DNA from: a virus
Length of the DNA stretch: 64,000 nt
Reading direction: 5' to 3' (one strand)
IMG/VR virus record: IMGVR_UViG_3300007512_000011
Coordinates: 32,001-96,000 of that record
Shown: one piece after another, positions 1-27,274 of the stretch
How the letters are laid out: every line of letters starts with the position of its first letter
Numbering within the stretch: position 1 is the first letter of the stretch
The notes under the pieces: model-generated
Seen by the model: the letters and a program-made list of their open reading frames with translations, nothing else
Database searches by the model: none
What the model was told of the DNA's origin: nothing
Translations under genes and position numbers: made by a program

Positions 1-3000
1 AGAGAATCGAAGCAAGTCTTATTCATCTTTGAGGGACGCCACTGTCCTTCTTCATTAAAAAGCATCTGATCTATGCATGTGAATGGTCGTCGGGACATAA
101 TTTCCTGAACTGCTGACTTGCCCACACCCTTGATCGCTGTAAGGGGTGGAACAAAGCCCTTTCTCTTCTCACTGTACACCCAGACATCTGAGGATGTATT
201 AATATCGGGCGGTAAAATCTTGTAGCCTAGTGATTTTATCTCGGCCATAATTTTTCCAAATTTTGGTGAACCATTCCATGTTTGAAGACAGGTCGCAAGC
301 CACTCCTTCTCATAATGTGTATGTAGCCATGCTGAGTAATACGAGTCAACAGCGTACGCTACAGCATGTGATTTATTAAACCCATAGGCAGAGAATGCTT
401 CGATTGTCTCGTATAGCTTAATTGCTTTATTCTCATCCATTCCAGACAGATCAGTTGCACCCCTCACAAATGTTTCTCGAAGCTCAATGCGCTCCCTTGC
501 CTTTTTCTCATTCATGTCAAGTGACTTCTTCACAAGAGTCTTTCTCATCTTATCAGATGCACCCTTGTCAAACCCACAGAGCTTCTGCGCAATAAGCATA
601 AACTGTTCCTGAAAAACAACAAAGCCTCGACTCTCCTTCAGTATTTCCTCAAGAACTGGGTGATCATATGTGATTGAATCGAGGGACTTTCCAGCTGCGA
701 CATACTTTTTGTGGACGTTTGCTGCAAGCGGACCAGGCCTGTAAATTGCTGTGATGGTTGCGAGATCCTCAATAGATCTTGGTTTAGCTTGCACACAGAA
801 CTTCCTGGCTCCAGAATTTGTAAACTGAAAGATCTGGACAAACCTACCGCCGTGATAAATGTACTCCCAGACACTCTGATCATCCATCTTATGATAGCGA
901 CTATTTAGATTCGCATCAAAGAATTCATTGATCTGATCGAATGTAGGTTCTTCAATACCTTGATTTCTCAAAATCAGTCTAATGCTATCCTCGACCATCT
1001 TTAAAGTTGCCAGGCCAAGAAAGTCAAACTTTAAGAACCCATTTTCTTCTAGATGTCTGAAGTTCATTCCTTCAGACCAGGGTGTTTGCAACTCTCCTCT
1101 GACCTTGATGACGGGCATGTGACTCTCAAGATCAGGACAAACGAGAACCCCTCCTGCATGGCGCCCTATTGATCTTGGTTCCATAAATAGAGTTTGGATG
1201 TGCTCTGCAATTTTTGGATATTTCTGCATGAACTGACGATATGATTCGCTATACTTCATACAATCTTCATGTGTCAACACATAAGTTGACTTTTCCTCAT
1301 GATCACCCATTGCACGCGGCATAACCTCTCTTTCAAGGGGCCCTGTTAGCACATTCACTTCTTCAAAGGGTATTCCAAAAAATTTTGACACATCTTTAAT
1401 CAGTGACTTAAGCTTTAGTGTGTTAAAGTTTGACACCGGAATTACAGAATCCTCTCCAAAGAGCTCCCTTGCAACATCAATTAAGACATCCCGATCTCCA
1501 ACATCAGAGTCAATATCAGGCCACGCCACTTTGTGAAGCCCTAGAAATCTCTCAAAAAGCAAGTTATATTGTATTGGGTCTATGTGTGTGATTCCAAGAA
1601 CATAATTGACAAGGCTTCCGCCGCCGGATCCTCTCGCTGGACCGAGAAGCGTACGGGACTTAGACTTTTCAAATACTTTTGTCAGGGTTAGAAAGTAATT
1701 TTCAAATCCGAGCTCCTTAATAACAGAAAGCTCTTCCTTAATTCGATCAACATATTCGGGATCTTGGTGAAAATTATCTTTCACCATTCCATCTTTTACC
1801 TGCCTAACAAGCTGTGTGAATGCAGAGCTTTTAGGCGTGCTAAAGTTTGGAAGCTTTGCCTCGCCATCAAACCACACTTCTTTACACTGATCCCATGCAA
1901 TATCGTGCGATCTTTCAATTGCAGACTTAACAAGCTCCTCACTGCCCTCATAAAAGTCGTAGTGATCATAGCTGTGGCGAAATTCATCCCACATCTGCTG
2001 TGCATTTTTTGGATACAGCTCACACTTGAGATCCTCCTTCTCAGGTAAAGTGGGCATTTCATCCCCTCGAGATCCCATTCTTCCCAGTAGTTTATACATT
2101 TCACGAGCTTCCCATAAGTCTGGGTTGCAGTAATGTGAATCAGCTGTTGCCACAAGTGGAACGCCAGTTTTTTTAGAAAGCTCTATTAGACATCGATTCG
2201 CTAAGTTTTGTGCCTCGAGCTTATTAAATTGCAATTCAAGAAAGAAATTCTCACGCCCTACAGCATCGACAAATCGATCCGTCATGTTCTCAAGCTTTGA
2301 CATAACAGCAGAGAGCACAGCGGGATCATCAACGAGAGAAGGTGTAAGATCATCAAATTTTGCATCCGGGAATTGCTGAAAAATTAATCCTGATGGCCTA
2401 CCTCCCACACACGCAGTTGACACAATCAGTCCCTCAGAGTGCTCTTTTAGCATTTTGTAATCAATTCTCGGAAAACGATAAAATCCTTCCTTATATGATC
2501 GCTTCACCAGCCGAAAAAGATTTTGTAATCCGACATAGTTTTTTGCCAACACGACAAGGTGATAGCGCCGCTTCCATTCAGGATATGTTCCTCTTTCTGA
2601 TTTAGATTCATTCTCATTTTCGATGACAAGCCCTTCATTGTCATCATCTTTTTCAATCACAGCACGTTGCTTTTTAGCTTCCCGCTCTAGTCTCACTGAC
2701 TCTCTGTGAGCTTCATAGTCATTTCTCCACTCATCGAGATCATCAACAAAGTAGCATTCGCAACCATAGACATGCTTATATTGCTGCCCTTTTGATTTTA
2801 GCTTCTTTGCATAATTGTGAGCATGAGCTGCTGAATTCATGTGACCATGATTTGTCAGAGCAAAAGCATTCATTCCATTTTCAAGAACAAAGTCTATGTG
2901 CTCATTCGGATACCCTAGACCGTCATAAACACTTGACCCATCATGAGCATGCAGCCCGACAAATCTTTTTGGAGGACCACAAACACCATCTAAGCTCTTC

Positions 3001-3014
3001 TTAAATTTTCCCAT
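1..3014 (-). CDS. dnaE: DNA polymerase III alpha subunit (family C), 3' end runs off the window
   Basis: Not in the ORF track because there is no stop in the window. Manual translation from ATG 3014 gives PHP motifs FVGLHAHDGSSVYDG and ALTNHGH, then GPARGSGGGS (~1620-1650), WPDIDSD (~1505-1525), KFDFLGL (~1010-1035) and AYGFNKSHAVAY (~350-390). Confidence 0.95.
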   Translation of the reverse strand, partial: MGKFKKSLDGVCGPPKRFVGLHAHDGSSVYDGLGYPNEHIDFVLENGMNAFALTNHGHMNSAAHAHNYAKKLKSKGQQYKHVYGCECYFVDDLDEWRNDYEAHRESVRLEREAKKQRAVIEKDDDNEGLVIENENESKSERGTYPEWKRRYHLVVLAKNYVGLQNLFRLVKRSYKEGFYRFPRIDYKMLKEHSEGLIVSTACVGGRPSGLIFQQFPDAKFDDLTPSLVDDPAVLSAVMSKLENMTDRFVDAVGRENFFLELQFNKLEAQNLANRCLIELSKKTGVPLVATADSHYCNPDLWEAREMYKLLGRMGSRGDEMPTLPEKEDLKCELYPKNAQQMWDEFRHSYDHYDFYEGSEELVKSAIERSHDIAWDQCKEVWFDGEAKLPNFSTPKSSAFTQLVRQVKDGMVKDNFHQDPEYVDRIKEELSVIKELGFENYFLTLTKVFEKSKSRTLLGPARGSGGGSLVNYVLGITHIDPIQYNLLFERFLGLHKVAWPDIDSDVGDRDVLIDVARELFGEDSVIPVSNFNTLKLKSLIKDVSKFFGIPFEEVNVLTGPLEREVMPRAMGDHEEKSTYVLTHEDCMKYSESYRQFMQKYPKIAEHIQTLFMEPRSIGRHAGGVLVCPDLESHMPVIKVRGELQTPWSEGMNFRHLEENGFLKFDFLGLATLKMVEDSIRLILRNQGIEEPTFDQINEFFDANLNSRYHKMDDQSVWEYIYHGGRFVQIFQFTNSGARKFCVQAKPRSIEDLATITAIYRPGPLAANVHKKYVAAGKSLDSITYDHPVLEEILKESRGFVVFQEQFMLIAQKLCGFDKGASDKMRKTLVKKSLDMNEKKARERIELRETFVRGATDLSGMDENKAIKLYETIEAFSAYGFNKSHAVAYAVDSYYSAWLHTHYEKEWLATCLQTWNGSPKFGKIMAEIKSLGYKILPPDINTSSDVWVYSEKRKGFVPPLTAIKGVGKSAVQEIMSRRPFTCIDQMLFNEEGQWRPSKMNKTCFDS

Positions 3015-3057
3015 TTACCTTCCAGGTAGGAGCATAAACATTACTCCTTTCATAAAC

Positions 3058-4949
<1,892 letters not shown>

Positions 4950-5009
4950 TCACGTCTCCTTATGACGACAGTATAAATGTAGACACCAAATTTAGAAAGA
5001 AAACCCTTT

Positions 5010-6044
5010 TTATTGCTCTTTTTGAATTTTTTTCAAATTCAAAATCAGGTCTCTCTCCTGTTTGGTTATTTCAGTGGGCACTTCAAGACAGAGATGCACC
5101 ATTTGATCACCTATAACACCCTCTCTCTTCATTCCCTTTCCAGACAATTTAACTACTGTGCCGTGCTGTGTACCGGGTGTCACCTTAAGAGAAACTTCAC
5201 CTGATAGTGTCTCAACAGTGACAGTTCCACCTAGAACAGCAAGCGGATACGAGATGTGCTTACGACAGTGTAGATCGTTCATCTCTCTCTCAAACTTAGG
5301 ATGAGGAACAACATCAACTCTAATGTATAGATCACCTGGCTGATTCGATGCTGGATGATGATTTCCTAGATTCTGAATTCTTAATCTTTCTCCGCTCATG
5401 ATTCCTACAGGAATGGTGAACTTTATCGCTCGAGGCTCTTGAACTCTTCCCAAGCCCTTACATGACTTGCACGGATTCTTAATAGTACTTCCGGAACCCT
5501 GGCAGTGACCACAAGTCATTGATATATTTAGAAAAGCAGCAGTGTGATGCATCTTACCAGAGCCGTTACAGTTGGGACAAGTCTGAACATCAGATGGATC
5601 TCTAATGCCCGCACCGCTACATTTGTCACATATGATCAAACTGTTATAGGTTGTCTGTTTTTCAATGCCTGAAAATGCTGACTCTAGAGAAATAGTCACC
5701 AGTATTTCAACATCCTCGCCTACTTGTGGACCCGAATCTGGCTGGCTATGCCCGCTAAAGAAAGATTCAAATCCAAAGTCTTTAAAGAAGCTTTCAAAAA
5801 TGTCATGTGGGTTATCTGCAAACGTCGTAAAATTTCGTGTACCTCCCAGATCATATTGCTTTCTTTTCTCGGGATCAGATAGCACCTCATATGCCTCAGA
5901 TGCTTCTTTGAACTTTGCTTCTGCATCTGGATTATCTGAATTTCTATCAGGATGATATTTTAATGCTAGCTCTCTATACACTTTCTTGATATCATCCTGT
6001 GATGCACTCTTGTCAACTCCTAACACACTGTAAAAATCAGACAA
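5010..6044 (-). CDS. dnaJ: Class A co-chaperone DnaJ
   Basis: J domain with HPD, F-rich linker, four CxxCxGxG repeats and a C-terminal PGDLY domain. Confidence 0.96.
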
Positions 6045-6055
6045 GAAAGTACCCT

Positions 6056-6496
6056 CTACTCTATTGATCCATAGTAGGGTTCAAAGAGAAGCTCATTGCT
6101 ATCATTGCATCTCGAAAGATAATCATCAAGATCCTGAAATGATGTACAGACCTTTATGCCTGATTGTGCGAGCATCAAATTAAATGTGGCACCACCAGGA
6201 AGGCCTGCACAAAAATATACAATAGGTGTATCTGAATGATATGCTACACCAGCTTCGAAGATGCTTCCCATATCCTTGTCACGTGTATTACAAATCACAA
6301 AATCATTTCCAAGAATGTGCTCTACATTTCCCTCAAATGTATCCTTCTGTGTTTGCAGATCAGCAGTTGGAGGACAGATGAAAAAATCTTTCGGTGAAAA
6401 ATATTCATAGCCATTTTTTGTTAATAGCTCTTTGATGGTTTCAACCTCCTCAAAAGCTGCAGGTGTGAACCAAGAACTTGCGATATATGCTTTCAT
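6056..6496 (-). CDS. Nucleoside 2-deoxyribosyltransferase / nucleotide N-glycosidase family protein
   Basis: N-terminal YIAS-WF, D-x-G-S-x-x-E-x-G-x-A ([12 protein letters not shown]) and FNLML motifs typical of the NDT/Rcl/MilB superfamily. Confidence 0.8.
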
Positions 6497-6498
6497 TA

Positions 6499-7479
6499 TT
6501 ATTCCTTTGTATTCTTATAGGCTGTTTCAAGATTAGTAATTTCATCTATCAGTCCATTCCAAATCTGACGAAACTTTGTGTTTCCCTCAGACTCCTCAAC
6601 GGGCGGATTTGTTCCATTTAGGTCATATCGATGTGCCTGATAGATTGTATCATTTGGATGATATTCTATGTGCTTATCACTATCAGAATCAGGCCAGTAT
6701 AAATTTGTACCTGTTCCAGATCTCAGATTTCTAATATAATGCCAGGCAGGACCTGTCAGTGCTTTTGTACCAATAACAGCACTAGCTTCAGGGAGGACCT
6801 TGATAATTTCAAGAGCCATTTTCGCTGCAATGAGATTATCAACTGCAGGCTGAATTTGCTTATCAGCCCGCTGCTTAACAAGCCCGATAATATCCTTTAG
6901 ATTAAACCTTCCGTAATAAAATGTTGACAAACACTTTGGCAAGATTGTACGAGCATCCATCATGGAAATCTGATTGGTATCAACCATGTCGGCATAGAGC
7001 TGCTTGGCATCGTCAACATGACGCTTCCATCGACGATAAAGCTCAGGACTATTTTCAACCGAAGAAGGAACAAGGCATGGCTCATGATGCAAGAATCTAT
7101 CACCTGTACACTGTGCAGCAAAAGATCCAGCTCGATGTCGAATTAGATGAGTCACGGTCTGCAAATCAATGCCGGCAAACTTAAAGGTAAAGCTGAAGAT
7201 CTCCATTGGTGTCGGCAATGCACGAAAGCAAAGCACATCCTCGAGATTTTCACTAAGCTCTAGCTGTGAAGCTCCTGAAGGGTTTGTGTAGTCTGGTTGA
7301 TCCGCCCACGTTGCCTTCACAAATCTCCACGCGACATCTCTCATCTGCTGGGGAGTTGGGTGATCTACAAGCTCAATATCTAGTGCATCGAGATCATTTA
7401 AGAATTGCGTTGTTGGATCTTCATCAAATCGAAGCGCCATTGGCAATTTTACAGGTTCAAGGTTTTTATCTTGTGGCAT
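6499..7479 (-). CDS. Divergent flavin-dependent thymidylate synthase (ThyX/Thy1-like)
   Basis: EIFSFTF, HLIRHRAGSF, DARTILP and N-x8-QRAD-x3-Q correspond to ThyX blocks. The active-site loop is divergent (AQCTGDR). Confidence 0.8.
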   Translation of the reverse strand: MPQDKNLEPVKLPMALRFDEDPTTQFLNDLDALDIELVDHPTPQQMRDVAWRFVKATWADQPDYTNPSGASQLELSENLEDVLCFRALPTPMEIFSFTFKFAGIDLQTVTHLIRHRAGSFAAQCTGDRFLHHEPCLVPSSVENSPELYRRWKRHVDDAKQLYADMVDTNQISMMDARTILPKCLSTFYYGRFNLKDIIGLVKQRADKQIQPAVDNLIAAKMALEIIKVLPEASAVIGTKALTGPAWHYIRNLRSGTGTNLYWPDSDSDKHIEYHPNDTIYQAHRYDLNGTNPPVEESEGNTKFRQIWNGLIDEITNLETAYKNTKE

Positions 7480-7509
7480 ATGAGAATCCTTTGTAGTAAT
7501 TTTATGCTG

Positions 7510-8451
7510 TTAGAGAGAATGTTTATTTAAAAAGAGTCGTAAAAAATCTTTTGAGTCATCATACATTGATATGTTTTCGCGACCCTCTAGTTCAGTGTTA
7601 TATGATGTTCTTGGAGAATAGACATGAATACCGTGCTTTGCATACTCAGCTGCATGCTTTGCTGAATCATCGATTGCACAGACGACTTTTCCAGAATCAA
7701 AATAATCTGACTGTGTGAGCCATCTATACTTTTCAGAGCTAAAGCTAATTCTATCATACTGCAAGCCCGACTCATTTATCCAGTGAAAAGTATCATAACA
7801 ACAAAGCAAATTTTCATTAGGACGGGCAGTCAGTATATGTACCCAATATCCTGCATCTTTAATCTGATTTATAGCAGAGATCATCTTCTTGTTTGGTGCC
7901 AGATTGCGTAATTCTCTTTCTCTGATGAAGTCAAAAAAGACCTTTTCCGGATTTAACCCAGCTGCTTTTACCTCTGATGTTGTATAGTATTCAGAAGAAT
8001 TTCTATCGATCTTAAGATTATGATTTTTCTCCAACCACTCTATAAATCCCGATCTGAATTCTATTATGACATCGTCCAAGTCAAGAATTATTACCTCTTG
8101 GCCCTCCCATTGGCTCTTAGATGATTGATAACGGGTGTGCAAAAAGAGGTCTTTGTCATGAAACGCAGAGACAAACTGATCACTCGAAATGTCCCACAGA
8201 TTCAAGATAGCCAAAATATATCGAAATACATCAACAGACTCATACAGAATTTTCGTTTTATTGACAGGTACGATTTCACTAGTGTGATCTTTATAGTTTA
8301 GCCCAGACACTAGAGAAGAGACCTCTGCGTGCAATGCTAGAGAAAAAGACTTTGTAGTCTCTTCTTTCTGCTTCTCTGAAAGCTTGTCAGAGCTGTAGAA
8401 CAGATCATTAAAAACTCTCTGTCTACTAAAAAGGTCGTCGATGGTTGACAA
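7510..8451 (-). CDS. Fusion of all-alpha dUTPase/MazG-like domain and HAD 5'(3')-nucleotidase (NT5C-like)
   Basis: N-terminal AEVSSL...ESVDVFRY. C-terminal HAD motifs LDLDDV, ILTAR, K and IDD. Confidence 0.75.
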   Translation of the reverse strand: MSTIDDLFSRQRVFNDLFYSSDKLSEKQKEETTKSFSLALHAEVSSLVSGLNYKDHTSEIVPVNKTKILYESVDVFRYILAILNLWDISSDQFVSAFHDKDLFLHTRYQSSKSQWEGQEVIILDLDDVIIEFRSGFIEWLEKNHNLKIDRNSSEYYTTSEVKAAGLNPEKVFFDFIRERELRNLAPNKKMISAINQIKDAGYWVHILTARPNENLLCCYDTFHWINESGLQYDRISFSSEKYRWLTQSDYFDSGKVVCAIDDSAKHAAEYAKHGIHVYSPRTSYNTELEGRENISMYDDSKDFLRLFLNKHSL

Positions 8452-8452
8452 T

Positions 8453-8839
8453 CTAATATCCGTCTTTTAATCTACTGTGGATTATTTCATCTTTTAAAAC
8501 ATAAGCCTTGTATAGATCATCTGCATCATAGCCGGCAAGGATTATCAGTGAGAAAAAATAATTGAAAGCATCAACTATCTCTTCCAGGAACTCCCTATCA
8601 TCGAATTCTTCGATATTTGTAACCCGATGTGGTTTCCAGTTTTTCAAATGCTGCAAAGCCTCAAACATTTCCTCTACACCGCGCAGTGCCATATCACGAC
8701 AAAGCTGCTGATTTTCTTTTTTCTTTAGATCAATCGGCAATTCTGGATATGCTTCTGGGAAGCTTTTTCTCAATTCCTGCATGAATGACTTCCGAAGCTC
8801 AAACATGCTAATCAGCCTGTCTTTCATCTTCCTCGGCAT
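8453..8839 (-). CDS. Dimeric all-alpha dUTPase/dCTPase (T4 gp56-like)
   Basis: EEMFE, NWKPH, EEIVDAFNY and C-terminal Y-x-x-K...R-x-x-x-GY pattern. Confidence 0.8.
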   Translation of the reverse strand: MPRKMKDRLISMFELRKSFMQELRKSFPEAYPELPIDLKKKENQQLCRDMALRGVEEMFEALQHLKNWKPHRVTNIEEFDDREFLEEIVDAFNYFFSLIILAGYDADDLYKAYVLKDEIIHSRLKDGY

Positions 8840-9056
8840 CCTGAATTTGTGAAACCTCTTCTAGCAATTGTGACACTTGATTCTCAGAAACTTCTCTGTA
8901 CTCAGGTGTTAACACTAGTGTGCTGTCATCTAGTTCAGAGCTTGTCACTCTAATCATTCTAAGATGATCAATCACGTCTGTTCCGGTGATAATAGCTAGT
9001 TGCACCAGCTTTGCCACCTGGCCTATTACCTCATCTGAAAGTTTATATTCTTCCAC
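8808..9056 (-). CDS. Hypothetical protein
   Basis: 82-aa ORF, GTG start preceded by GGAG, tightly packed between neighbours. Confidence 0.7.
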   Translation of the reverse strand: MEEYKLSDEVIGQVAKLVQLAIITGTDVIDHLRMIRVTSSELDDSTLVLTPEYREVSENQVSQLLEEVSQIQDAEEDERQAD

Positions 9057-9065
9057 GTCTTTCTC

Positions 9066-9872
9066 CTAATTTTGAACCTCGGGAACCCAGTGTGTAGTTC
9101 TTCCGTCAGAAGTTCTTTCCTTGATTACTTGATTACCGATTGGATCAACATCCTGATTATAAACAGCAAATCTTCTAGTGTATTTGCCAGAATTTCCATC
9201 AAAATCTTGATATGTGGAAATAGTTGCACCGCCAGTCCTATAAGACTCACGGATAGTTGATTTTATGCTTTTATTTAAAGCAGAAATCTCTCGATCACTA
9301 AGACTACTACAAAGTCTATGGGGAGAAATTCTGGCCATATATAGTGATTCTGCTTTTAGATAATTTCCAACCCCTGCGATCACAGATTGATCCATTACTG
9401 CCTGGACAATAGTTTTATTCTTTCTTTTTCTTAGAGCATTTTTAAATTCAAAATCAGTTATATCTTGTGATAGCATATCTGGGCCTAGCTTTGTGAGCTT
9501 GCGACACAAGTAGTCATGACCTTTTACAAACCTTAGTGTTCCAAAGTTACGCATATCATTAAAGAAGATCTCATCATCTTCAATGGTTAATTTAACCCTA
9601 CTATGTTTCGTCGCCCCTGACTGCCATGTACCTGACATTCCCAATGTGCTCCAGATGCTCCAGCCTTCATCTAGCTTAAAGTAAATAAATTTTCCATGAC
9701 ATTCAACAGAAGTTATCATTCTTGGTAAATTTTTGATAAGATCAAATGATCCCTCTGGAGGGCCGTGCCTTGTGTATCTTCCACTTAACAAATCAATCTT
9801 AAGTAAACATTTTTCTGTGAGCCTCTCTGATAAAGCGTCAACGATATGTCTAACTTCTGGACCCTCTGGCAT
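9066..9872 (-). CDS. Fpg/Nei family DNA glycosylase/AP lyase, zinc-less finger type
   Basis: True start at MPEGPEV (catalytic Pro/Glu; ATG 9872, not 9959). GKFI, LGMSG, FNDMRNFG, H2TH DQSVIAGVGNY and GRTTHW are present, with no C4 zinc finger. Confidence 0.93.
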   Translation of the reverse strand: MPEGPEVRHIVDALSERLTEKCLLKIDLLSGRYTRHGPPEGSFDLIKNLPRMITSVECHGKFIYFKLDEGWSIWSTLGMSGTWQSGATKHSRVKLTIEDDEIFFNDMRNFGTLRFVKGHDYLCRKLTKLGPDMLSQDITDFEFKNALRKRKNKTIVQAVMDQSVIAGVGNYLKAESLYMARISPHRLCSSLSDREISALNKSIKSTIRESYRTGGATISTYQDFDGNSGKYTRRFAVYNQDVDPIGNQVIKERTSDGRTTHWVPEVQN

Positions 9873-9917
9873 AAAAACCCCTGTAGAAATGTTACCACTT
9901 AAATTCAAAGTGTTCAA

Positions 9918-10577
9918 ATGAAAAGAGTAATCATTTCCGATACACACATAGGCAGTCAATTCTACAAATCAAGTGAGCTATTAAGCTTTTTAACAAGTGA
10001 AAGCTATGATCAGCTTATTCTAGCCGGAGACATTATTGATTTCATAAAAATCCCGGTCTTTACCAATCGGTGTAAAAAGATTCTAGAAACAATCGATTAT
10101 CAGAAAGAGATCATCTATGTAGTCGGAAATCACGATGAAAGCTTAGTCGGTCTAATAGGAGACAACCTTTTTGGCATTAACTTTGTCAAAAAATATGAGT
10201 TTGAAGAAGGAGGCAGAAAATTTAGAATAGAGCACGGTGATGAGTACACCAAAGGTGCACTGCATAATAAGCTCTTTGTAACACTTCTGTCTGTCATCCA
10301 GAACATTCTTGAATTCACATTTAAGTTTGACTTTACTACATGGTGGACAGGAATTCAGATTAAGCGTCACAAATTACGAAGCGTCATTCATGTGCTTAGG
10401 CACAATGAAGATGTGGATGTCTTTATAATGGGACACACCCATAATCCTGAAGCGTTAATATGGGTGGACGAAGATCAACATATTAAGACTTATATTAATG
10501 CTGGCGACTGGGTCACTCATCAAACCTATGTCACTATTATTGATAGTATCGCTCGATTACGAAAGTTCGAATCATAG
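9918..10577 (+). CDS. Calcineurin-like metallophosphoesterase (LpxH/UDP-2,3-diacylglucosamine hydrolase-like)
   Basis: ISDTH, GDIID, GNHD, HGD, GHTH and NAGDW motifs. The only plus-strand gene. Confidence 0.85.
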   Translation: MKRVIISDTHIGSQFYKSSELLSFLTSESYDQLILAGDIIDFIKIPVFTNRCKKILETIDYQKEIIYVVGNHDESLVGLIGDNLFGINFVKKYEFEEGGRKFRIEHGDEYTKGALHNKLFVTLLSVIQNILEFTFKFDFTTWWTGIQIKRHKLRSVIHVLRHNEDVDVFIMGHTHNPEALIWVDEDQHIKTYINAGDWVTHQTYVTIIDSIARLRKFES

Positions 10578-10596
10578 CATCTCATCTAATGCATGT

Positions 10597-11031
10597 TTAA
10601 GCAACCTGAGCAGTTTGATTTTTTAACCATGTGTGATAGTCATTTAGGGCATTATCTCTGGGTTGCACATCTTTCCAATCGCCTAAGCAAAAAATACGAT
10701 AAGCATCGGAAGCATACTTTCCGATCCCGTAGAGAACTTCTGGGTTATCCCTCCACTTCTTGTTGATGTAATCATCAGACATTCTCACCAGGGCCTTAGA
10801 TCGTCTCTGTGACAATCCTAGCGGCTGTATCATAGTCTTGACATCTTCAAGATTTGCATTCGACGCTGCTTGTGGAGTTGGGTATTTTAGAAAAAATTCC
10901 CACATATACGGTTCTGCATCAACCCTTTTTGTTAGGTTGCAAAAGATACATGCGACAAATATTTTCCAGGGATCCTGCCAAAGATGCTCTTGAATGAGAT
11001 TGTAAGGTGAGCGTGGGGGCTGCCAGGACAT
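10597..11031 (-). CDS. Stand-alone MBD4-type HhH-GPD mismatch DNA glycosylase
   Basis: WQPPRSPYNLIQE-x4-DPWK, KYP, PLGL, HhH LYGIGKY-x-x-D-x-YRIFC and P-x-D-x-x-L-x-x-YH-x-WL closely follow the eukaryotic MBD4 catalytic domain (comparison from memory). Confidence 0.88.
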   Translation of the reverse strand: MSWQPPRSPYNLIQEHLWQDPWKIFVACIFCNLTKRVDAEPYMWEFFLKYPTPQAASNANLEDVKTMIQPLGLSQRRSKALVRMSDDYINKKWRDNPEVLYGIGKYASDAYRIFCLGDWKDVQPRDNALNDYHTWLKNQTAQVA

Positions 11032-22813: not shown

Positions 22814-23758
22814 TTATTCAGTGTCCATACAGTATATCGGCTCATTCTTAACAGCATTAAGAAGATTCGGTAAATCTAAGCCGGCACAATCTTTTTTTGA
22901 CTTAGTGAAATTATAATGATTACAGAATCCATGAAACTTTCCCCTCTCGCAGTCTTTGTGAACACCTGTTTCAATATGCCCGTTTGAATTTTTAGGATAC
23001 TCTAGAGGAATTCCGTGGCCAATGTGGATAGCCTTCCATAGGGCCTTTAACGCTTCAAGTTGCACTGGGTAAAAATCCAAAAAGGGATCTAATTTCTTTC
23101 CGTGAACCCAGGCATTCTCCTGTATCGGCCTCTCCCCGAAGCCATGGTTGACATACCAATCTTGATACTTGAGATAGTACGCATTTGATATCTCAACTCC
23201 AATCCCTTTTGTGTTTCCTCCTTCAAATCGAGGTATGCCAGCATGCCATGCTTTATGCTGGGTATCTAGCATCTGAAAGATTGTTCCATCATTATCGATA
23301 AGAAAATGAACTGATACCTTGCGGTTATTTAAAACTCTCGCACAAGACTCTGCGCTGAGACATACGTCCCAGTGGTTTACAAAGAATGTCGGTTTTCGAT
23401 CGGGTTTCCCAGAATAATCAGTGTAGCAACCTTTTTTCGATTTAAACCCACTGGGCTCATCCCAAAGAATGACATTATTCCACTCGATCGGAATAAATGA
23501 TCCGTTGTGGACAATGTGTTTGTCACCAGAAGTAGATACATGTCTTCTTGACTTGTAAGATGAAATATTTGCCTCTCTCTCTGTCCAAATCCTTCTGTAC
23601 GTCGCAGGACCCACTAAGCCATCTGCTGTTAAACCATTTTTTTTCTGCCACTTCTGAACTGCTTTTACCAGGTTGACATCAAATTCATCACAGCCGAACC
23701 ACGCGGGATTCCACCCAAGACTGGCTGCGCTTGAACTATTGTAAAAATCCTTATCCAT
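22814..23758 (-). CDS. Endolysin: peptidoglycan-binding domain plus N-acetylmuramoyl-L-alanine amidase (Amidase_2)
   Basis: AVQKWQKKNGLTADGLVGPAT PG-binding motif. SVHFLID-x-DG-x-I-x-Q, AWHAG, GIGVEI and H...K-x-DC amidase motifs. Confidence 0.9.
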   Translation of the reverse strand: MDKDFYNSSSAASLGWNPAWFGCDEFDVNLVKAVQKWQKKNGLTADGLVGPATYRRIWTEREANISSYKSRRHVSTSGDKHIVHNGSFIPIEWNNVILWDEPSGFKSKKGCYTDYSGKPDRKPTFFVNHWDVCLSAESCARVLNNRKVSVHFLIDNDGTIFQMLDTQHKAWHAGIPRFEGGNTKGIGVEISNAYYLKYQDWYVNHGFGERPIQENAWVHGKKLDPFLDFYPVQLEALKALWKAIHIGHGIPLEYPKNSNGHIETGVHKDCERGKFHGFCNHYNFTKSKKDCAGLDLPNLLNAVKNEPIYCMDTE

Positions 23759-24185
23759 CTTTATCTGATCCTGTATCCTTGAGAGATGCTAGGGATGACC
23801 TGTCTTTATATTTTTTCTTAACTTTGTCACTTATAGGAATGGCTTCTCCGTCGCCGTCGACCCTAAGGTAGGTTATCTCTGTTTCACAAACTGCTTTTTG
23901 TGTGCCATTGTATGGGCTGTGCCTGCGAGCTTCAAGTCTAATAATAATAGATGTGTTTCCAACACTTAAAACCTTACCATATATCTTGATAAGATGACCG
24001 GGTCTAACTGGTTTTTTAAAAATGCATTCTGCCATCTTTAGTGTCACCATTCTAGGTGTGTCACAGCACTGGCCTGCATATGCTCCACCTGCTTCATCGA
24101 GCCATGAAAGCATCACGCCTCCAAATAAATTACCGTGGACACCAATATTTTGCCCCTTGCATATGTGAGTTGAAATAAGCTCCAT
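23751..24185 (-). CDS. Hotdog-fold acyl-CoA thioesterase (YciA-like)
   Basis: HGNLFGGVMLSWLDEAG, FKKPV and VGNTS motifs. Confidence 0.88.
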   Translation of the reverse strand: MELISTHICKGQNIGVHGNLFGGVMLSWLDEAGGAYAGQCCDTPRMVTLKMAECIFKKPVRPGHLIKIYGKVLSVGNTSIIIRLEARRHSPYNGTQKAVCETEITYLRVDGDGEAIPISDKVKKKYKDRSSLASLKDTGSDKDG

Positions 24186-24193
24186 TTAAGTAC

Positions 24194-24796
24194 TTATTCA
24201 AAGTCTATATCAACAGAAATCTTAATATTGAACTTTGGTACTCTCAGCTGATTTGCAAGACCGTGCTTTTTAGTCTCGTCGGGATCTAAAAACCAGTCAG
24301 CATGTCCTTTTTTATGCACGATTTTCAGAAAATAATCATCTCTCTTGCCACAGTTTCTTGCCATCATTGTGTAAACAATGTTGTTTAATCTCTCTGTTTC
24401 CTCAGCAGATGCCTTGAGCTCTTCGACCTTTCCCCTTTCCATTGATGATACGTCATGTATCATCACAGTGGCATTCGGATCCATAAATCTCATTCCATCT
24501 GTACCGAAGGAAAACAAGATAGCACCACAAGACATCGCCTTGCCCTCTACAATAGTTGCTATTGGTAATTCTGAATGCTTTACTGCGCTAATCATTGACA
24601 TCAAGCTATAGACTTGACCGCCGTATGAATCAATTACGACTGGAATGACTTTTTGACCAGTGTTGTGAGCCTGTGCAATCTCCTGGCTAAATGTCTTTGC
24701 AGCATCTTCATCGAACTTATTGACTCGAATTATAACAGGATTTTTTCTTAGCTCAACTTCTTTTATTTCTGGTGATATTTCTGTTGTCCACTTCAC
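24194..24796 (-). CDS. ClpP-family serine protease
   Basis: IDSYGG, GKAMSCG (catalytic Ser), MIHD (His) and DWFL (Asp). Confidence 0.88.
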   Translation of the reverse strand: MKWTTEISPEIKEVELRKNPVIIRVNKFDEDAAKTFSQEIAQAHNTGQKVIPVVIDSYGGQVYSLMSMISAVKHSELPIATIVEGKAMSCGAILFSFGTDGMRFMDPNATVMIHDVSSMERGKVEELKASAEETERLNNIVYTMMARNCGKRDDYFLKIVHKKGHADWFLDPDETKKHGLANQLRVPKFNIKISVDIDFE

Positions 24797-24808
24797 ACTT
24801 TTCTCACT

Positions 24809-27274
24809 TTAACCGCACTTAGAAGAACCGCACGATTTACATGTAACACATCCTTCCTGGTAAATAAGCGAACGTTCAGCATGACAGGTATCACAAACCT
24901 TATCCTCATGTGCTCTCTCACCATTCTTAATGTAACTTTTCAACACCCTTGCTACAACCCGAGAAAAAGAAAATAAATCAGCGTCCTTATCCTTTTGTAG
25001 CTGTTCAACAATGTAGTGAATTGGCGCACCGTGGCGTAATGCCAGTGAAATTGTTCTAGTAAACCCAGCATGATTGGGATTGTCAAAGACAGAAACAACA
25101 TCTTTAATCACAAACTCATCACCATTTTTTCCAATTCTTAAATCGTATATAGAATTTTTTGTCTTTCTTGGGTGCTTAACAATAATTCCAAAAGAGTGTT
25201 TCTTTGGTATTTCAATGTACTTTTGGAGACCACCAATTACCTCATAAGGTCTTCCGCCGAGCAAGCCCACAAGGATTGTCCAGGCTTCACCCTTAATTGT
25301 GGCATGATGAATATTACAAGGTAGCTCACTGGGCCTGACGGGTGCATCGTGTGTTTTAAATCTAGTTTTCTTCTTTCGACTTCCTGAGACTAGCACACCA
25401 GATCTGCACCCATCTCGATAAACAGTCACACCTTTGCATCCGGATCTCCACCCCGTTATATAGATCTCCTTAACCGTCTCAACATCAGTATCAGTAGGAA
25501 TATTTGTGGTATTTGAAATTGCATGACATACCCACTTCTGGGCAGCTGCTTGCATTCTTACCTTATTGATCCAGTTAATTTCATTGGCAGTAGATTTATG
25601 ATACGGAGACTTAGATGGATCATCCTCATTTCCTGTGATATTCATCCACTGTTTGTACCCGTGGTGATACACATTATACTCCTGCCACTTGTCTCCGACA
25701 TCATCGATAAAATCTACACTAGCATTGACATCCTGACCAGTTATTTTCTTTCTACGTGTGTAGCTAAGAAGATATGCAGGTTCAATTCCGCTTGTTGTCT
25801 GCGTAAGGGTTGACACAGATCCTGCAGGAGCTGTGGTTGTCAATGCGATATTTCTACGTCCGTGTCGCTTACACATTTCATAAACGTCAGGTGCTGCCTT
25901 CCACACTCTGCGCAAAAACTCATGATCCTCTTCTCGTGAATGGTCATGAACTGGAAATGAACCCCTCTCTTCTGCAAGATGACATGAAGATCTATATGCA
26001 TTAATGCACAGCGTCTTATAAATTTTTTCAACAATCTTAATAGACTTATCAGACCCATACTCAACTCCCAAAGAAGCGAGTGTATCTCCTACAGCAGTTA
26101 CTCCTAATCCCGTGCGACGACCTTTGAGTGCCATATCCTTAATCTTTACCCAGAGATTTTTCTCAATTGCCTTGACCTCGTCGGTCTCCGGATCTGCATC
26201 AATCTTAGCCAAAATTTTATCGACCTGCTCAATTTCAAGATCAATCATATCATCCATGAGCCTTTGTGCTTTTTGAGTTACCTCAGACATACCCTCAAAA
26301 TCAAATTTTGAATCTGAGCCATATGGATTTAAAACAAACGAAGATAGATTTATTAGCATTAATCTACATGAATCATATGGGCTCAAAATTATTTCACCGC
26401 AAGGGTTGGTTGAAGTTGACCCAAATCCAATATCTGCATAGGCATCAGAGGGTGTGAGATTGATTGCATTATCCCAAAAGAGCAATCCAGGCTCTGCAGA
26501 AGCATGTGCTGACGAAACTATCTCATGCCAGATCTCTCTTGCATCATCCATTACAGTTATTTGTGGAGAATCTTCATCTACTGGAAAGCGTAACTCAACA
26601 TCACTTCCCTTTTCCACTGCCTTCATAAATTCATCAGACAGTCTTATCGAAATATTGGCGCCTGTAACACGATCAAGTTTTCGCTTAATCTTAATAAAAT
26701 CTCGAATTTGTGGATGATGGACAGATATTGTCAGCATTAATGCACCGCGTCTTCCACCTTGCGCGACTTCTCGACATGAATTAGAATATCTGTCCATAAA
26801 TACTTCAATTCCATCAGTTGTCTTTGCTGCATTACCAGTCCCAAGACCCTTGGGCCGAATTGTGCTAAGATCAAAGCCCACGCCGCCGCGGCGCTTTGCA
26901 ATCTGAACCAGCTCCTGATCTGTCTTTAGTATTCCGCCGTAAGAATCACGTGGCGACTCTATGACAAAGCAATTGGATAATGATTGAATAAAGTGATCAT
27001 TTCCAATGCCTGACATCGGACTTCCCTGTGGAACAATATATGTGAAATTCTTGAAGAGGCTGTAGATTTCTTCTTCTGTCATTGGGTTGGGATACTTTTT
27101 CTCAATTCTGGCAAATTCTGAAGCTAAGCGTCGGTGCATATCATCAGGTGTGACTTCGAGATAATCTCCCTCCTTGTCACAGAGAGCATACTTTGTCGCA
27201 AAAACATTTGCTGCAAGATTATCATCACCAAAATATTCCAAACTTCTTCTGATAACTTCATCAAACTCTGCCAC
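24809..27274 (-). CDS. nrdJ: Class II (adenosylcobalamin-dependent) ribonucleotide reductase
   Basis: SNCFV, RRGALM, ANISI, TNPCGEI, APAGS, KGVTVYRDG and a C-terminal CxxC...CxxCG zinc ribbon. No beta-subunit gene is adjacent. Confidence 0.87.
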   Translation of the reverse strand: MAEFDEVIRRSLEYFGDDNLAANVFATKYALCDKEGDYLEVTPDDMHRRLASEFARIEKKYPNPMTEEEIYSLFKNFTYIVPQGSPMSGIGNDHFIQSLSNCFVIESPRDSYGGILKTDQELVQIAKRRGGVGFDLSTIRPKGLGTGNAAKTTDGIEVFMDRYSNSCREVAQGGRRGALMLTISVHHPQIRDFIKIKRKLDRVTGANISIRLSDEFMKAVEKGSDVELRFPVDEDSPQITVMDDAREIWHEIVSSAHASAEPGLLFWDNAINLTPSDAYADIGFGSTSTNPCGEIILSPYDSCRLMLINLSSFVLNPYGSDSKFDFEGMSEVTQKAQRLMDDMIDLEIEQVDKILAKIDADPETDEVKAIEKNLWVKIKDMALKGRRTGLGVTAVGDTLASLGVEYGSDKSIKIVEKIYKTLCINAYRSSCHLAEERGSFPVHDHSREEDHEFLRRVWKAAPDVYEMCKRHGRRNIALTTTAPAGSVSTLTQTTSGIEPAYLLSYTRRKKITGQDVNASVDFIDDVGDKWQEYNVYHHGYKQWMNITGNEDDPSKSPYHKSTANEINWINKVRMQAAAQKWVCHAISNTTNIPTDTDVETVKEIYITGWRSGCKGVTVYRDGCRSGVLVSGSRKKKTRFKTHDAPVRPSELPCNIHHATIKGEAWTILVGLLGGRPYEVIGGLQKYIEIPKKHSFGIIVKHPRKTKNSIYDLRIGKNGDEFVIKDVVSVFDNPNHAGFTRTISLALRHGAPIHYIVEQLQKDKDADLFSFSRVVARVLKSYIKNGERAHEDKVCDTCHAERSLIYQEGCVTCKSCGSSKCG

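Follow-up and report, generated by a model that had tools for sequence, protein, structure and literature searches.

A conserved pyrimidine-nucleotide module of uncultured marine phages and its possible role in making and maintaining C5-modified cytosine

The window analysed here is a stretch of 64,000 nucleotides (nt), bases 32001-96000 of the 114,967-base-pair (bp) IMG/VR virus record IMGVR_UViG_3300007512_000011 (CheckV completeness, 38%). At positions 6056-11031 it carries a compact block in which genes for nucleotide-pool enzymes lie beside genes for two DNA glycosylases, and this raises the question of what such a combination does for a phage. A preliminary description of the block had proposed that a flavin-dependent ThyX-like enzyme makes a C5-modified pyrimidine such as 5-methyl-deoxycytidine (5-methyl-dC) at the nucleotide level, that other enzymes purge the unwanted nucleotides, and that an MBD4-type glycosylase repairs the resulting deamination damage. 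The seven genes that it named are all present in the interval, and an eighth one (orf82) was added:

6056..6496, minus strand: protein of the nucleoside 2'-deoxyribosyltransferase (NDT) family, 146 amino acids (aa); PF05014, 44 bits; core gene
6499..7479, minus strand: rewired ThyX paralogue, 326 aa; PF02511, 58.7 bits; core gene
7510..8451, minus strand: fusion of a MazG-like/dUTPase_2-like domain and an NT5C-type HAD 5'-deoxynucleotidase, 313 aa; core gene
8453..8839, minus strand: stand-alone MazG-like all-alpha nucleoside triphosphate pyrophosphatase, 128 aa; PF08761 (dUTPase_2), 24.3 bits for a cut-off of 22.9
8808..9056, minus strand: orf82, small acidic protein; core gene
9066..9872, minus strand: Nei/Fpg glycosylase-lyase of the zincless NEIL1/mimivirus-Nei1 type, 268 aa from Met30; three Fpg Pfam domains; accessory gene
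9918..10577, plus strand: YfcE-type metallophosphoesterase; PF12850, 47 bits, and PF00149, 45 bits; lineage-specific accessory gene
10597..11031, minus strand: stand-alone MBD4-type HhH-GPD glycosylase domain, 144 aa; accessory gene

The answer that we propose, and whose chances we consider evenly balanced, is that the phage clade replaces deoxycytidine (dC) with a C5-substituted form synthesised at the level of the nucleotide, and that the repair arm is semi-dedicated to such a genome. The gist of the preliminary description (C5-modified cytosine, purge of nucleotides and repair of deamination) is plausible, whereas three of its assignments (ThyX as the maker of 5-methylcytosine, a MilB/DNPH1-like N-glycosidase and a gp56-like pyrophosphatase) were not borne out.

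Searches with the ThyX paralogue and its family alignment provided 84 related IMG/VR loci, some of which represent one phage sampled more than once, so that the counts given here are not independent events. Since the same gene order recurs in these loci at 50-91% identity of the ThyX paralogue, the clustering of the seven genes is not due to chance. By tblastn within 10 kb of the paralogue, the stand-alone MazG-like gene was detected in 81/84 loci, orf82 in 79/84, and the MazG-like/HAD fusion and the NDT gene in 77/84 each, while the accessory genes Nei (47/84), MBD4-like (39/84) and metallophosphoesterase (23/84) occupy a fixed slot just upstream of this core. The genes form a conserved operon-like nucleotide module, in support of the preliminary description, and a clade-conserved pyrimidine-pool island is centred on the interval. 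The product of orf82, co-inherited with the module, had no match in Pfam, PHROG or NCBIfam, and the ESM Atlas gave virus-only hypothetical clusters; the 5-kb block as a whole had no blastn match in cultured phages. The homologues come overwhelmingly from marine metagenomes, Tara among them. Based on the genes around the interval (Pol III alpha, DnaK, DnaJ, ClpP, a class I/II-type ribonucleotide reductase and long fibre-like genes) and on related contigs of up to 236 kb, the carrier of the module is a large uncultured phage, a marine jumbo phage of roughly 236-300 kb.

The simplest function for such an island would be to supply deoxythymidine monophosphate (dTMP) and to clean the deoxynucleotide pool, the glycosylases giving general repair to a phage of the sunlit ocean whose DNA is canonical. 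We consider this rather unlikely, mainly in view of the ThyX paralogue and of a second enzyme described below. The paralogue does retain the RHR motif and the equivalents of Arg147, Arg174 and Asn163 (alignment to T. maritima ThyX and profile-profile comparison), and the first three of these features would suit an ordinary thymidylate synthase; dCMP (deoxycytidine monophosphate) deaminase, thymidine kinase and ribonucleotide reductase genes of the same phage would likewise suit dTMP supply. However, the paralogue is genuinely divergent, since it scores 36.3 bits against the thyX equivalog TIGR02170 (cut-off, 87.9), and of the ThyX signature (RHR-x7-S with following R-Y, and a His 25 residues before RHR) only RHR is retained. 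Leu stands in place of His53, Thr/His in place of Arg74/Gln75, Cys in place of Ser88 and CTGDR in place of the SxRY loop; the substrate loop and the folate-stacking His are thus rewritten and yet invariant in the family, which argues against a household role. The C-terminus contains an extra region of about 95 aa with an invariant GTNLYWP motif. The AlphaFold2 model (predicted local distance difference test score, pLDDT, 80.8) confirmed the Thy1 fold in a Foldseek search, with ThyX and PolB structures at E values of 7e-9 to 1e-7 and a template modelling score of about 0.7 on the target, the top matches being the PolB UMP/dUMP (uridine and deoxyuridine monophosphate) methylase and an atypical Corynebacterium ThyX. 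In hhalign comparisons with the canonical ThyX of related phages the probability was 95% and the identity 22%. Such a canonical enzyme, scoring 129-167 bits and counting 219-240 aa from the first start codon, is encoded in addition to the paralogue (65-70 bits) in four of the five relatives of 200-236 kb, and no ThyA was found in these five genomes. This search for a second, canonical enzyme, which the preliminary description had suggested, therefore pointed, if indirectly, to a role of the paralogue other than household dTMP synthesis.

In canonical ThyX, Arg174 pairs with uracil O4 and the motif His stacks on the folate. As the Arg that recognizes uracil O4 is retained, nothing marks the paralogue as a dCMP enzyme, and its casting as the C5-cytosine enzyme gives way to a better candidate outside the interval. 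It is accordingly unlikely to a marked degree, in our estimate, that the paralogue itself is a flavin-dependent dCMP C5-methylase yielding 5-methyl-dCMP, with pyrophosphatases purging deoxycytidine triphosphate (dCTP) and the MBD4-like protein repairing T:G mismatches. Its not being the household enzyme would agree with that proposal, but no acidic or amide substitution like that of the ThyA switch to dCMP accompanies the retained Arg174 equivalent, and loss of the folate-stacking His argues against ordinary methylene transfer. In the literature on ThyX paralogues only PolB is described as neofunctionalised (PMC5954106), and no description of the ThyX family of the window was found there.

The better candidate lies just before the window in the same record:

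G000:C1:30498-31403 (L089:18498-19403), minus strand: fusion of a deoxynucleoside monophosphate (dNMP) kinase and a mini-thymidylate synthase (mini-TS), 301 aa; 598-1503 nt before window base 1

This protein had no match in Pfam, NCBIfam or a PDB sequence search, and its PHROG match is to thymidylate kinase only (residues 32-151). Its 22 orthologues share an invariant P-loop and, in the C-terminal half, invariant SRR, Cys, R-S, Asp and His. With the family profile the best non-kinase PDB match was T4 dCMP hydroxymethylase (E value, 0.079), Cys236 of the mini-TS aligning on Cys148 of the T4 enzyme and Asp267 on Asp179. In the AlphaFold2 model (pLDDT, 94.7) two domains were resolved by VIA-align: residues 2-146 form a dNMP/deoxynucleoside-kinase domain (Z score, 11-14), and residues 145-301 a thymidylate synthase (TS) fold (MilA, Z 11.8; 9iqc, Z 11.2; ThyA, Z 10.7). 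The top Foldseek ranks were the phage HY126 dCMP hydroxylase 9iqu/9iqc (9iqu, E value 7.6e-7), T4 dCMP hydroxymethylase and ThyA. The mini-TS domain, of about 150 aa, ends at the position of the ThyA H-x-Y, and it has the features of the dCMP branch of the TS superfamily, namely the fold, the catalytic Cys and Asp at ThyA position 177. In that superfamily Asp at ThyA-177 (N177D) selects dCMP, a residue other than Leu at 143 accompanies non-methyl products, and Asn at 169 (D169N) marks 5-hydroxy-dCMP synthases (PMC13326640). The mini-TS of the window genome reads R-S-C-N-V, with Asn at ThyA-169, and has Asp at ThyA-177; the position three or two residues before its Cys is polar or acidic, not Leu, and by the same rule (PMC13326640) this argues against a plain methyl product. 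On account of its Cys and dCMP-specifying Asp, the kinase/mini-TS fusion ranks first among the candidates for the C5 chemistry, ahead of the ThyX paralogue by itself. Canonical metabolism offers no role for a TS fold that has the Cys and a cytosine-specifying Asp and is joined to a kinase; together with the coexistence of a canonical ThyX, such an enzyme weakens the case for mere dTMP supply. The gene occurs in 5/5 large relatives and, in 30 loci, within the flanks of the module; about 127 cluster representatives were found, all near 300 aa and none annotated as a TS. No homologue of the fusion was detected in 50,697 cultured phage records, and no description of the mini-TS was found in the literature.

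A separate TS-fold enzyme with the dCMP-type Asp was present in every genome checked, and in Geobacillus phage GR1 it adjoins the ThyX paralogue, a further argument against the paralogue acting by itself as the methylase. GR1 is the only cultured phage among the 50,697 records with a full-length ThyX paralogue (45% identity). The next gene, which overlaps the stop of the paralogue, encodes a 151-aa stand-alone mini-TS (UDY80710.1; L087:8969-9424, plus strand) annotated as 'hypothetical protein' that matches the hidden Markov model of the C-terminal domain (E value, 2.7e-9) and has the Cys, Asn at 169 and Asp at 177. Upstream of the paralogue lies a nitroreductase-type flavin reductase gene, and nearby are genes for an NDT with 39.5% identity and an HD-type, YfbR-like 5'-deoxynucleotidase; no second Thy1 gene was found in GR1. 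That ThyX paralogue, mini-TS and NDT recur together with a 5'-deoxynucleotidase from a non-homologous family speaks for a single pathway. GR1 is culturable and thus a ready test system.

The remaining core genes were then considered for what they could do to the nucleotide pool. The stop of the NDT gene is 2 nt from the ThyX-paralogue gene. The preliminary description had compared NDT to MilB and DNPH1, which act on nucleotides; yet a profile of 16 orthologues matched true nucleoside 2'-deoxyribosyltransferases (6evs, E value 2.8e-16; 1s2d, 2.3e-7) and DNPH1 (4fyh) with an E value of 0.42 only, and MilB was not among the matches listed. Tyr4, Asp75 and Glu81 are invariant, Glu81 aligning to the NDT nucleophile (6evs). 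These matches make a nucleoside-level role after the HAD nucleotidase more natural than that of a nucleotide N-glycosidase. As regards the fusion protein, both domain matches in the window genome are below cut-off (NT5C, 22 bits for 24.8), but NT5C was matched by 11/13 orthologues (best, 1.1e-10) and dUTPase_2 by 8/13 (best, 3.9e-6). HAD motifs I-IV of the NT5C type are invariant (DxDD, T208, K241 and DD261-262), and the N-terminal domain has conserved H41-x-E43 and E71-x-x-D74. Single-sequence PDB searches with the fusion and with the stand-alone MazG-like protein gave chance-level matches only (fusion against 9iqw, E value 0.075). The stand-alone protein matches phrog_12184 'nucleotide pyrophosphohydrolase' (1.6e-16) and has the EExxE and EExxD motifs of its family. 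It had been called gp56-like, and the dUTPase_2/MazG-like family presumably includes T4 gp56 by InterPro naming; nonetheless, no similarity to gp56 was found by tblastn against the 50,697 phage records, where only actinophage and Aeromonas-phage homologues were listed, which leaves the label putative. The nearest cultured homologues are actinophage 'dUTPase'/MazG-like proteins (31-35% identity), an annotation that would fit ordinary dTMP supply, whereas a 5'-deoxynucleotidase would counteract it.

Pairing a pyrophosphatase with a 5'-nucleotidase also resembles the logic of the classical 5-hydroxymethyluracil (hmU) and uracil phages, which have dTTPase/dTMPase enzymes. By this analogy the ThyX paralogue, with its uracil-type recognition residues retained, might turn dUMP into a product such as 5-hydroxymethyl-dUMP, the fusion removing deoxythymidine triphosphate and dTMP, and the MBD4-like protein and Nei policing misplaced derivatives. 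MBD4 does excise 5-hydroxymethyluracil, and the top PDB matches of the MBD4-like protein (4ew0/4ew4/4evv) are entries which we take to be MBD4 complexes from a study on the excision of thymine and of that base. We nevertheless give such a modification of thymine little credence: the canonical ThyX, thymidine kinase and dCMP deaminase of the same genomes make dTMP, a poor fit with excluding T, and the constant partner of the paralogue is a mini-TS of cytosine type, not of uracil type.

The two glycosylases appear, from their sequences, to be of types specialised on damaged or deaminated pyrimidines. The Nei open reading frame had been called as 9066-9959 (minus strand), but its real start is Met30, at window position 9872, giving the N-terminus MPEGPEV; the apparent overlap with the oppositely oriented metallophosphoesterase gene therefore disappears. 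Its best PDB sequences were 3a42/3a45/3a46/3vk7/3vk8/4nrw (E value, 4e-47), followed at a distance by bacterial MutM (1e-30 or weaker) and E. coli Nei (8e-13). It has the N-terminal Pro2/Glu3, an H2TH domain (72 bits) and no Cys4 finger in the C-terminus, as in NEIL1/MvNei1-type enzymes. Entries of the 3a42/3vk7 kind belong to mimivirus Nei1, an orthologue of NEIL1 that has been crystallised in the presence of 5-hydroxyuracil and of thymine glycol. The MBD4-like protein aligned over its full length to mouse and human MBD4 glycosylase-domain structures (E value, 1e-46; about 55% identity). Its catalytic Asp126 corresponds to human D560 (P-x-D motif) and is invariant in 18 phage homologues, including that of phage Xp12; the Asp of GIGKYASD was ruled out as the catalytic residue, since the P-x-D Asp is the one that aligns to the Asn of the 4evv mutant. 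The human Arg468 wedge is Leu33 in the phage protein, and there is no methyl-CpG-binding domain. The metallophosphoesterase scored 48.6 bits against TIGR00040 (yfcE), below cut-off, and all 23 of its loci fall in the sub-clade nearest to the window. In the 80 loci with at least 6 kb of upstream sequence, the contents of the slot were as follows:

MBD4 and Nei: 23/80 loci
None of the three: 19/80 loci
Nei only: 16/80 loci
MBD4 and phosphoesterase: 9/80 loci
Phosphoesterase only: 6/80 loci
All three: 6/80 loci
Phosphoesterase and Nei: 1/80 loci

Nei is thus found within the slot in 46/80 loci and the MBD4-like gene in 38/80; the latter, where present, is always upstream and on the same strand, and in about 20 loci it abuts or overlaps Nei (-65 to +27 nt), giving the order MBD4-Nei-orf82-MazG-fusion-ThyX paralogue. 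Each glycosylase gene was detected in 4/5 large relatives, and at least one of the two in 5/5, sometimes 30-40 kb from the module; one relative without repair genes at the module has Nei and MBD4-like genes 4.6 kb apart and about 40 kb off (G002:C1:201066-206314). The pair may move together. As to the coupled, dedicated repair of the preliminary description, the repair genes are a variable accessory of the slot, and that they are dispensable there in 19 loci would suit general repair.

A variable slot is also typical of arms-race loci, and NDT-fold, MazG-like and HAD enzymes are versatile, so one may ask if the hydrolases, the NDT-fold protein and the glycosylases act on host nucleotides, signals or host DNA, as counter-defence or host takeover with no DNA modification at all. 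This seems to us highly improbable. The module lies, with operon-like spacing, within a region of replication and nucleotide metabolism (Pol III alpha, ribonucleotide reductase, thymidine kinase and deaminase), each enzyme has its closest relatives among enzymes of DNA-precursor metabolism or DNA repair, and no PADLOC-type or anti-defence homology turned up, no search aimed at such homology having been made.

An independent lineage links an MBD4-like gene to C5-modified cytosine. Xp12 is the classical phage in which 5-methylcytosine replaces C, and among cultured phages only this Xanthomonas phage and its kin have MBD4-like homologues with good coverage (36-37% identity):

L088:8914-10162: Xp12 MBD4-like gene and PRA-PH fusion (QNN97216, QNN97215), the MBD4-like gene being unannotated and beside the dCMP methylase
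L098:3914-5199: equivalents in phage Donnerlittchen

In both phages the order is MBD4-like, a 257-267-aa protein with a PRA-PH (MazG-superfamily) N-terminal domain, TS homologue, deaminase and DHFR. In Xp12 the PRA-PH/MazG-like domain is fused to a further region of about 150 aa, described in the Xp12 record as HAD hydrolase. The MBD4-like proteins of the window clade and of the Xp12 group have the same invariant catalytic Asp and the same Leu in place of the Arg468 wedge. That the Xp12 gene abuts a MazG-like fusion and a dCMP methylase supports the proposed tie between MBD4-like enzymes and a C5-cytosine nucleotide pathway. The Xp12 ThyA homologue makes 5-methyl-dCMP, and deaminase homologues make deoxythymidine nucleotides from 5-methyl-dC nucleotides (10.1101/2024.12.05.627091). 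The pairing of MBD4-like gene, nucleotide-level methylase and MazG-like fusion, and the dCMP-deaminase homologue shared with that scheme, are what would favour 5-methyl-dCMP in the window phage as well. No description of MBD4-like genes in modified-base phages was found in the literature, and Thy1, HhH-GPD and NDT are not among the associated domains in the main text of the MetaGPA papers. A distant MBD4-like protein (33% identity over 74% of the query) was also found in the T4-like Cyanophage S-TIM54 (UYE97365; L097:4277-4663), its gene lying among small hypothetical genes with no nucleotide-metabolism neighbours.

In the pathway that we propose, every substrate and every step is predicted from gene identities, folds, key residues, synteny and co-occurrence. 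The MazG-like pyrophosphatase or pyrophosphatases would convert dCTP (and deoxyuridine triphosphate) into monophosphate, barring unmodified dCTP from DNA and feeding the modifying enzyme. The mini-TS would then modify C5 of dCMP, its fused kinase passing the product on as diphosphate, and the ThyX paralogue may act as its flavin partner, supplying reduced flavin or a flavin-borne group, a role suggested because the flavin-binding RHR is retained while the folate-stacking His and the canonical dUMP loop are lost. The HAD 5'-deoxynucleotidase and NDT would break down excess or unneeded dNMP to the nucleoside and exchange its base, and the phage thymidine kinase would re-phosphorylate the nucleoside; dTMP itself would be made by the canonical ThyX elsewhere in the genome. 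In DNA, the MBD4-type glycosylase would remove T, 5-hydroxymethyl-U or U opposite G, and the NEIL1/MvNei1-type enzyme 5-hydroxy-U and other oxidised pyrimidines, these targets probably being deamination and oxidation products of a genome with C5-modified cytosine. For the product we favour 5-hydroxy- or 5-hydroxymethyl-dC, perhaps glycosylated later, over the 5-methyl-dC of the preliminary description, because the mini-TS carries the D169N signature of 5-hydroxy-dCMP synthases and the Fpg protein is of NEIL1 type. More tentatively, and with the chances against it, the ThyX paralogue and the mini-TS might constitute an undescribed two-component flavin-dependent C5-dCMP system, 5-hydroxylation being likeliest in the window genome and possibly followed by glycosylation, and C5-modified-cytosine phages, from marine jumbo phages to Xp12, might as a rule carry an MBD4-type glycosylase, here with a NEIL1-type one in addition, dedicated to excising the deaminated form of the phage's own base opposite G.

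Several observations weigh against replacement of cytosine by this route. The mini-TS is not recognised by PF00303 and is missing the folate-binding segments that ThyA has at its N- and C-termini. The residue at ThyA-169 is D, N or E among its orthologues, for which reason the 5-hydroxy signature may not transfer to this subfamily and is to be taken as a lead only; by eye, Nei accompanied N in 5/6 and D or E in 7/15 of 21 loci, a sample too small and phylogenetically dependent for a link to be claimed. The substrate specificity of the MazG-like proteins, the HAD domain, NDT and the ThyX paralogue is unreadable from sequence, and the partnership between paralogue and mini-TS would rest on co-occurrence and one adjacency. 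No canonical ThyX was found in the window's own 115-kb record, which is 38% complete, and no DNA glycosyltransferase was identified, these families not having been searched for in the relatives. The slot has no repair-type gene in the 19 loci mentioned, and 5-hydroxy-C, if left unprotected in the DNA of the phage, would itself be a target for a NEIL1-type enzyme. The 115-kb record also contains no ThyA (PF00303), C5-methyltransferase (PF00145) or N4/N6-methyltransferase (PF01555), and the absence of the last two would suit canonical DNA. Post-replicative methylation was rejected for this 38% fragment only, which is without PF00145 or PF01555.

Around the kinase/mini-TS gene, conserved neighbours in the relatives are those for an NDP-sugar epimerase/dehydratase, a cupin, thymidine kinase, a DHH protein and dCMP deaminase, the last three forming in the record of the window one run downstream of the mini-TS:

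L089:15179-15592, minus strand: dCMP/dCTP-deaminase homologue
L089:15613-16515, minus strand: DHH/DHHA1 phosphoesterase
L089:16517-17077, minus strand: thymidine kinase
L089:17074-17532, minus strand: small cupin, beside the kinase/mini-TS gene
L089:17487-18482, minus strand: NDP-sugar epimerase/dehydratase; PF01370; nearest TviC, GalE and RmlB, all below cut-off

The best NCBIfam match of the deaminase was the 'anti-phage dCTP deaminase' model, far below cut-off. The epimerase/dehydratase and the cupin, conserved in many relatives, could provide a sugar donor for base glycosylation. A phage Fe/Mn superoxide dismutase homologue is also encoded in this region (L089:12850-13545, minus strand; Sod_Fe_C, 66 bits). 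Directly downstream of the module, window positions 3-6044 (minus strand) encode a phage Pol III alpha (PHP, NTPase and finger) and full-length DnaK and DnaJ; DnaK was present in 4/84 loci and DnaJ in 11/84. Further away, at 22814-27274 (minus strand), there is a run of genes for an Amidase_2 protein with a peptidoglycan-binding domain, a 4HBT thioesterase, a ClpP protease and a ribonucleotide reductase large subunit with a C-terminal TSCPD domain, and in many relatives this run adjoins the repair slot.

If the proposed replacement of cytosine is true, an abundant clade of ocean phages would carry it out with a toolkit different from full-length ThyA: a 150-aa TS core fused to a kinase, a ThyX paralogue without the folate and dUMP signatures, and a recycling branch at the nucleoside level. 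These parts were not found in the literature or, GR1 excepted, in the 50,697 cultured phage genomes. The coupling to repair suggests the rule that a C5-modified-cytosine genome needs its own T/5-x-U:G mismatch glycosylase, a rule under which the unannotated MBD4-like gene next to the Xp12 dCMP methylase would gain a function. The enzymes would be of practical interest as methylation- or modification-specific tools.

T-even, RB69-type and Xp12-type phages are known to replace cytosine at the nucleotide level and, to our knowledge, all of them do so with full-length ThyA homologues. With Xp12 the window phage shares C5 modification of dCMP at the nucleotide level (predicted on the side of the window), a dCMP-deaminase homologue in cis, a MazG-superfamily N-terminal domain fused to a region annotated as HAD, and a stand-alone MBD4-like gene directly upstream. 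Xp12 differs in having a full-length ThyA-type enzyme (PF00303, 138 bits) and DHFR, and no Nei-type enzyme is annotated in the stretch examined; the window phage has instead the 150-aa mini-TS fused to a kinase, plus the ThyX paralogue, NDT and orf82. The T-even and RB69/DLP3 pathways (gp56 dCTPase, gp42-type TS homologue and gp1 dNMP kinase) resemble it in the logic of dCTP hydrolysis, in a TS fold with Asp-177 and in a dNMP kinase, and the NDP-sugar epimerase/dehydratase adjoining the mini-TS counts as a further likeness. In the window phage, by contrast, kinase and TS are fused, the TS domain is short of ThyA by about 100 residues, no gp56 match was seen and no DNA glycosyltransferase was identified (families not searched for in relatives), while the T-even and RB69 pathways have no counterpart to the ThyX paralogue, NDT, the HAD nucleotidase or the two glycosylases. 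The 5-hydroxy-dCMP synthases (PMC13326640; 9iqu/9iqc) come closest to the mini-TS, whose fold is nearest to that of the flavin-dependent dCMP hydroxylase and which has Asn at ThyA-169. The ThyX paralogue shares with PolB (PMC5954106) and canonical ThyX (EC 2.1.1.148) the Thy1 fold, RHR and the Arg147/Arg174/Asn163 equivalents, and with PolB its being a second copy next to a normal ThyX; it differs from both in His53 to Leu, Ser88 to Cys, the rewritten 85-92 loop, the lack of Arg74/Gln75, the C-terminal extension of about 95 aa, its phage family and its constant mini-TS partner. Finally, the MBD4-like protein keeps the catalytic-domain similarity and the catalytic Asp of MBD4 without the methyl-CpG-binding domain and with Leu for the Arg468 wedge, and the phage Nei resembles mimivirus Nei1/NEIL1 in sequence (4e-47), in its Pro2/Glu3 N-terminus and in its zincless C-terminus; in contrast to MBD4 and Nei1/NEIL1, both are encoded in a bacteriophage operon together with nucleotide-pool enzymes.

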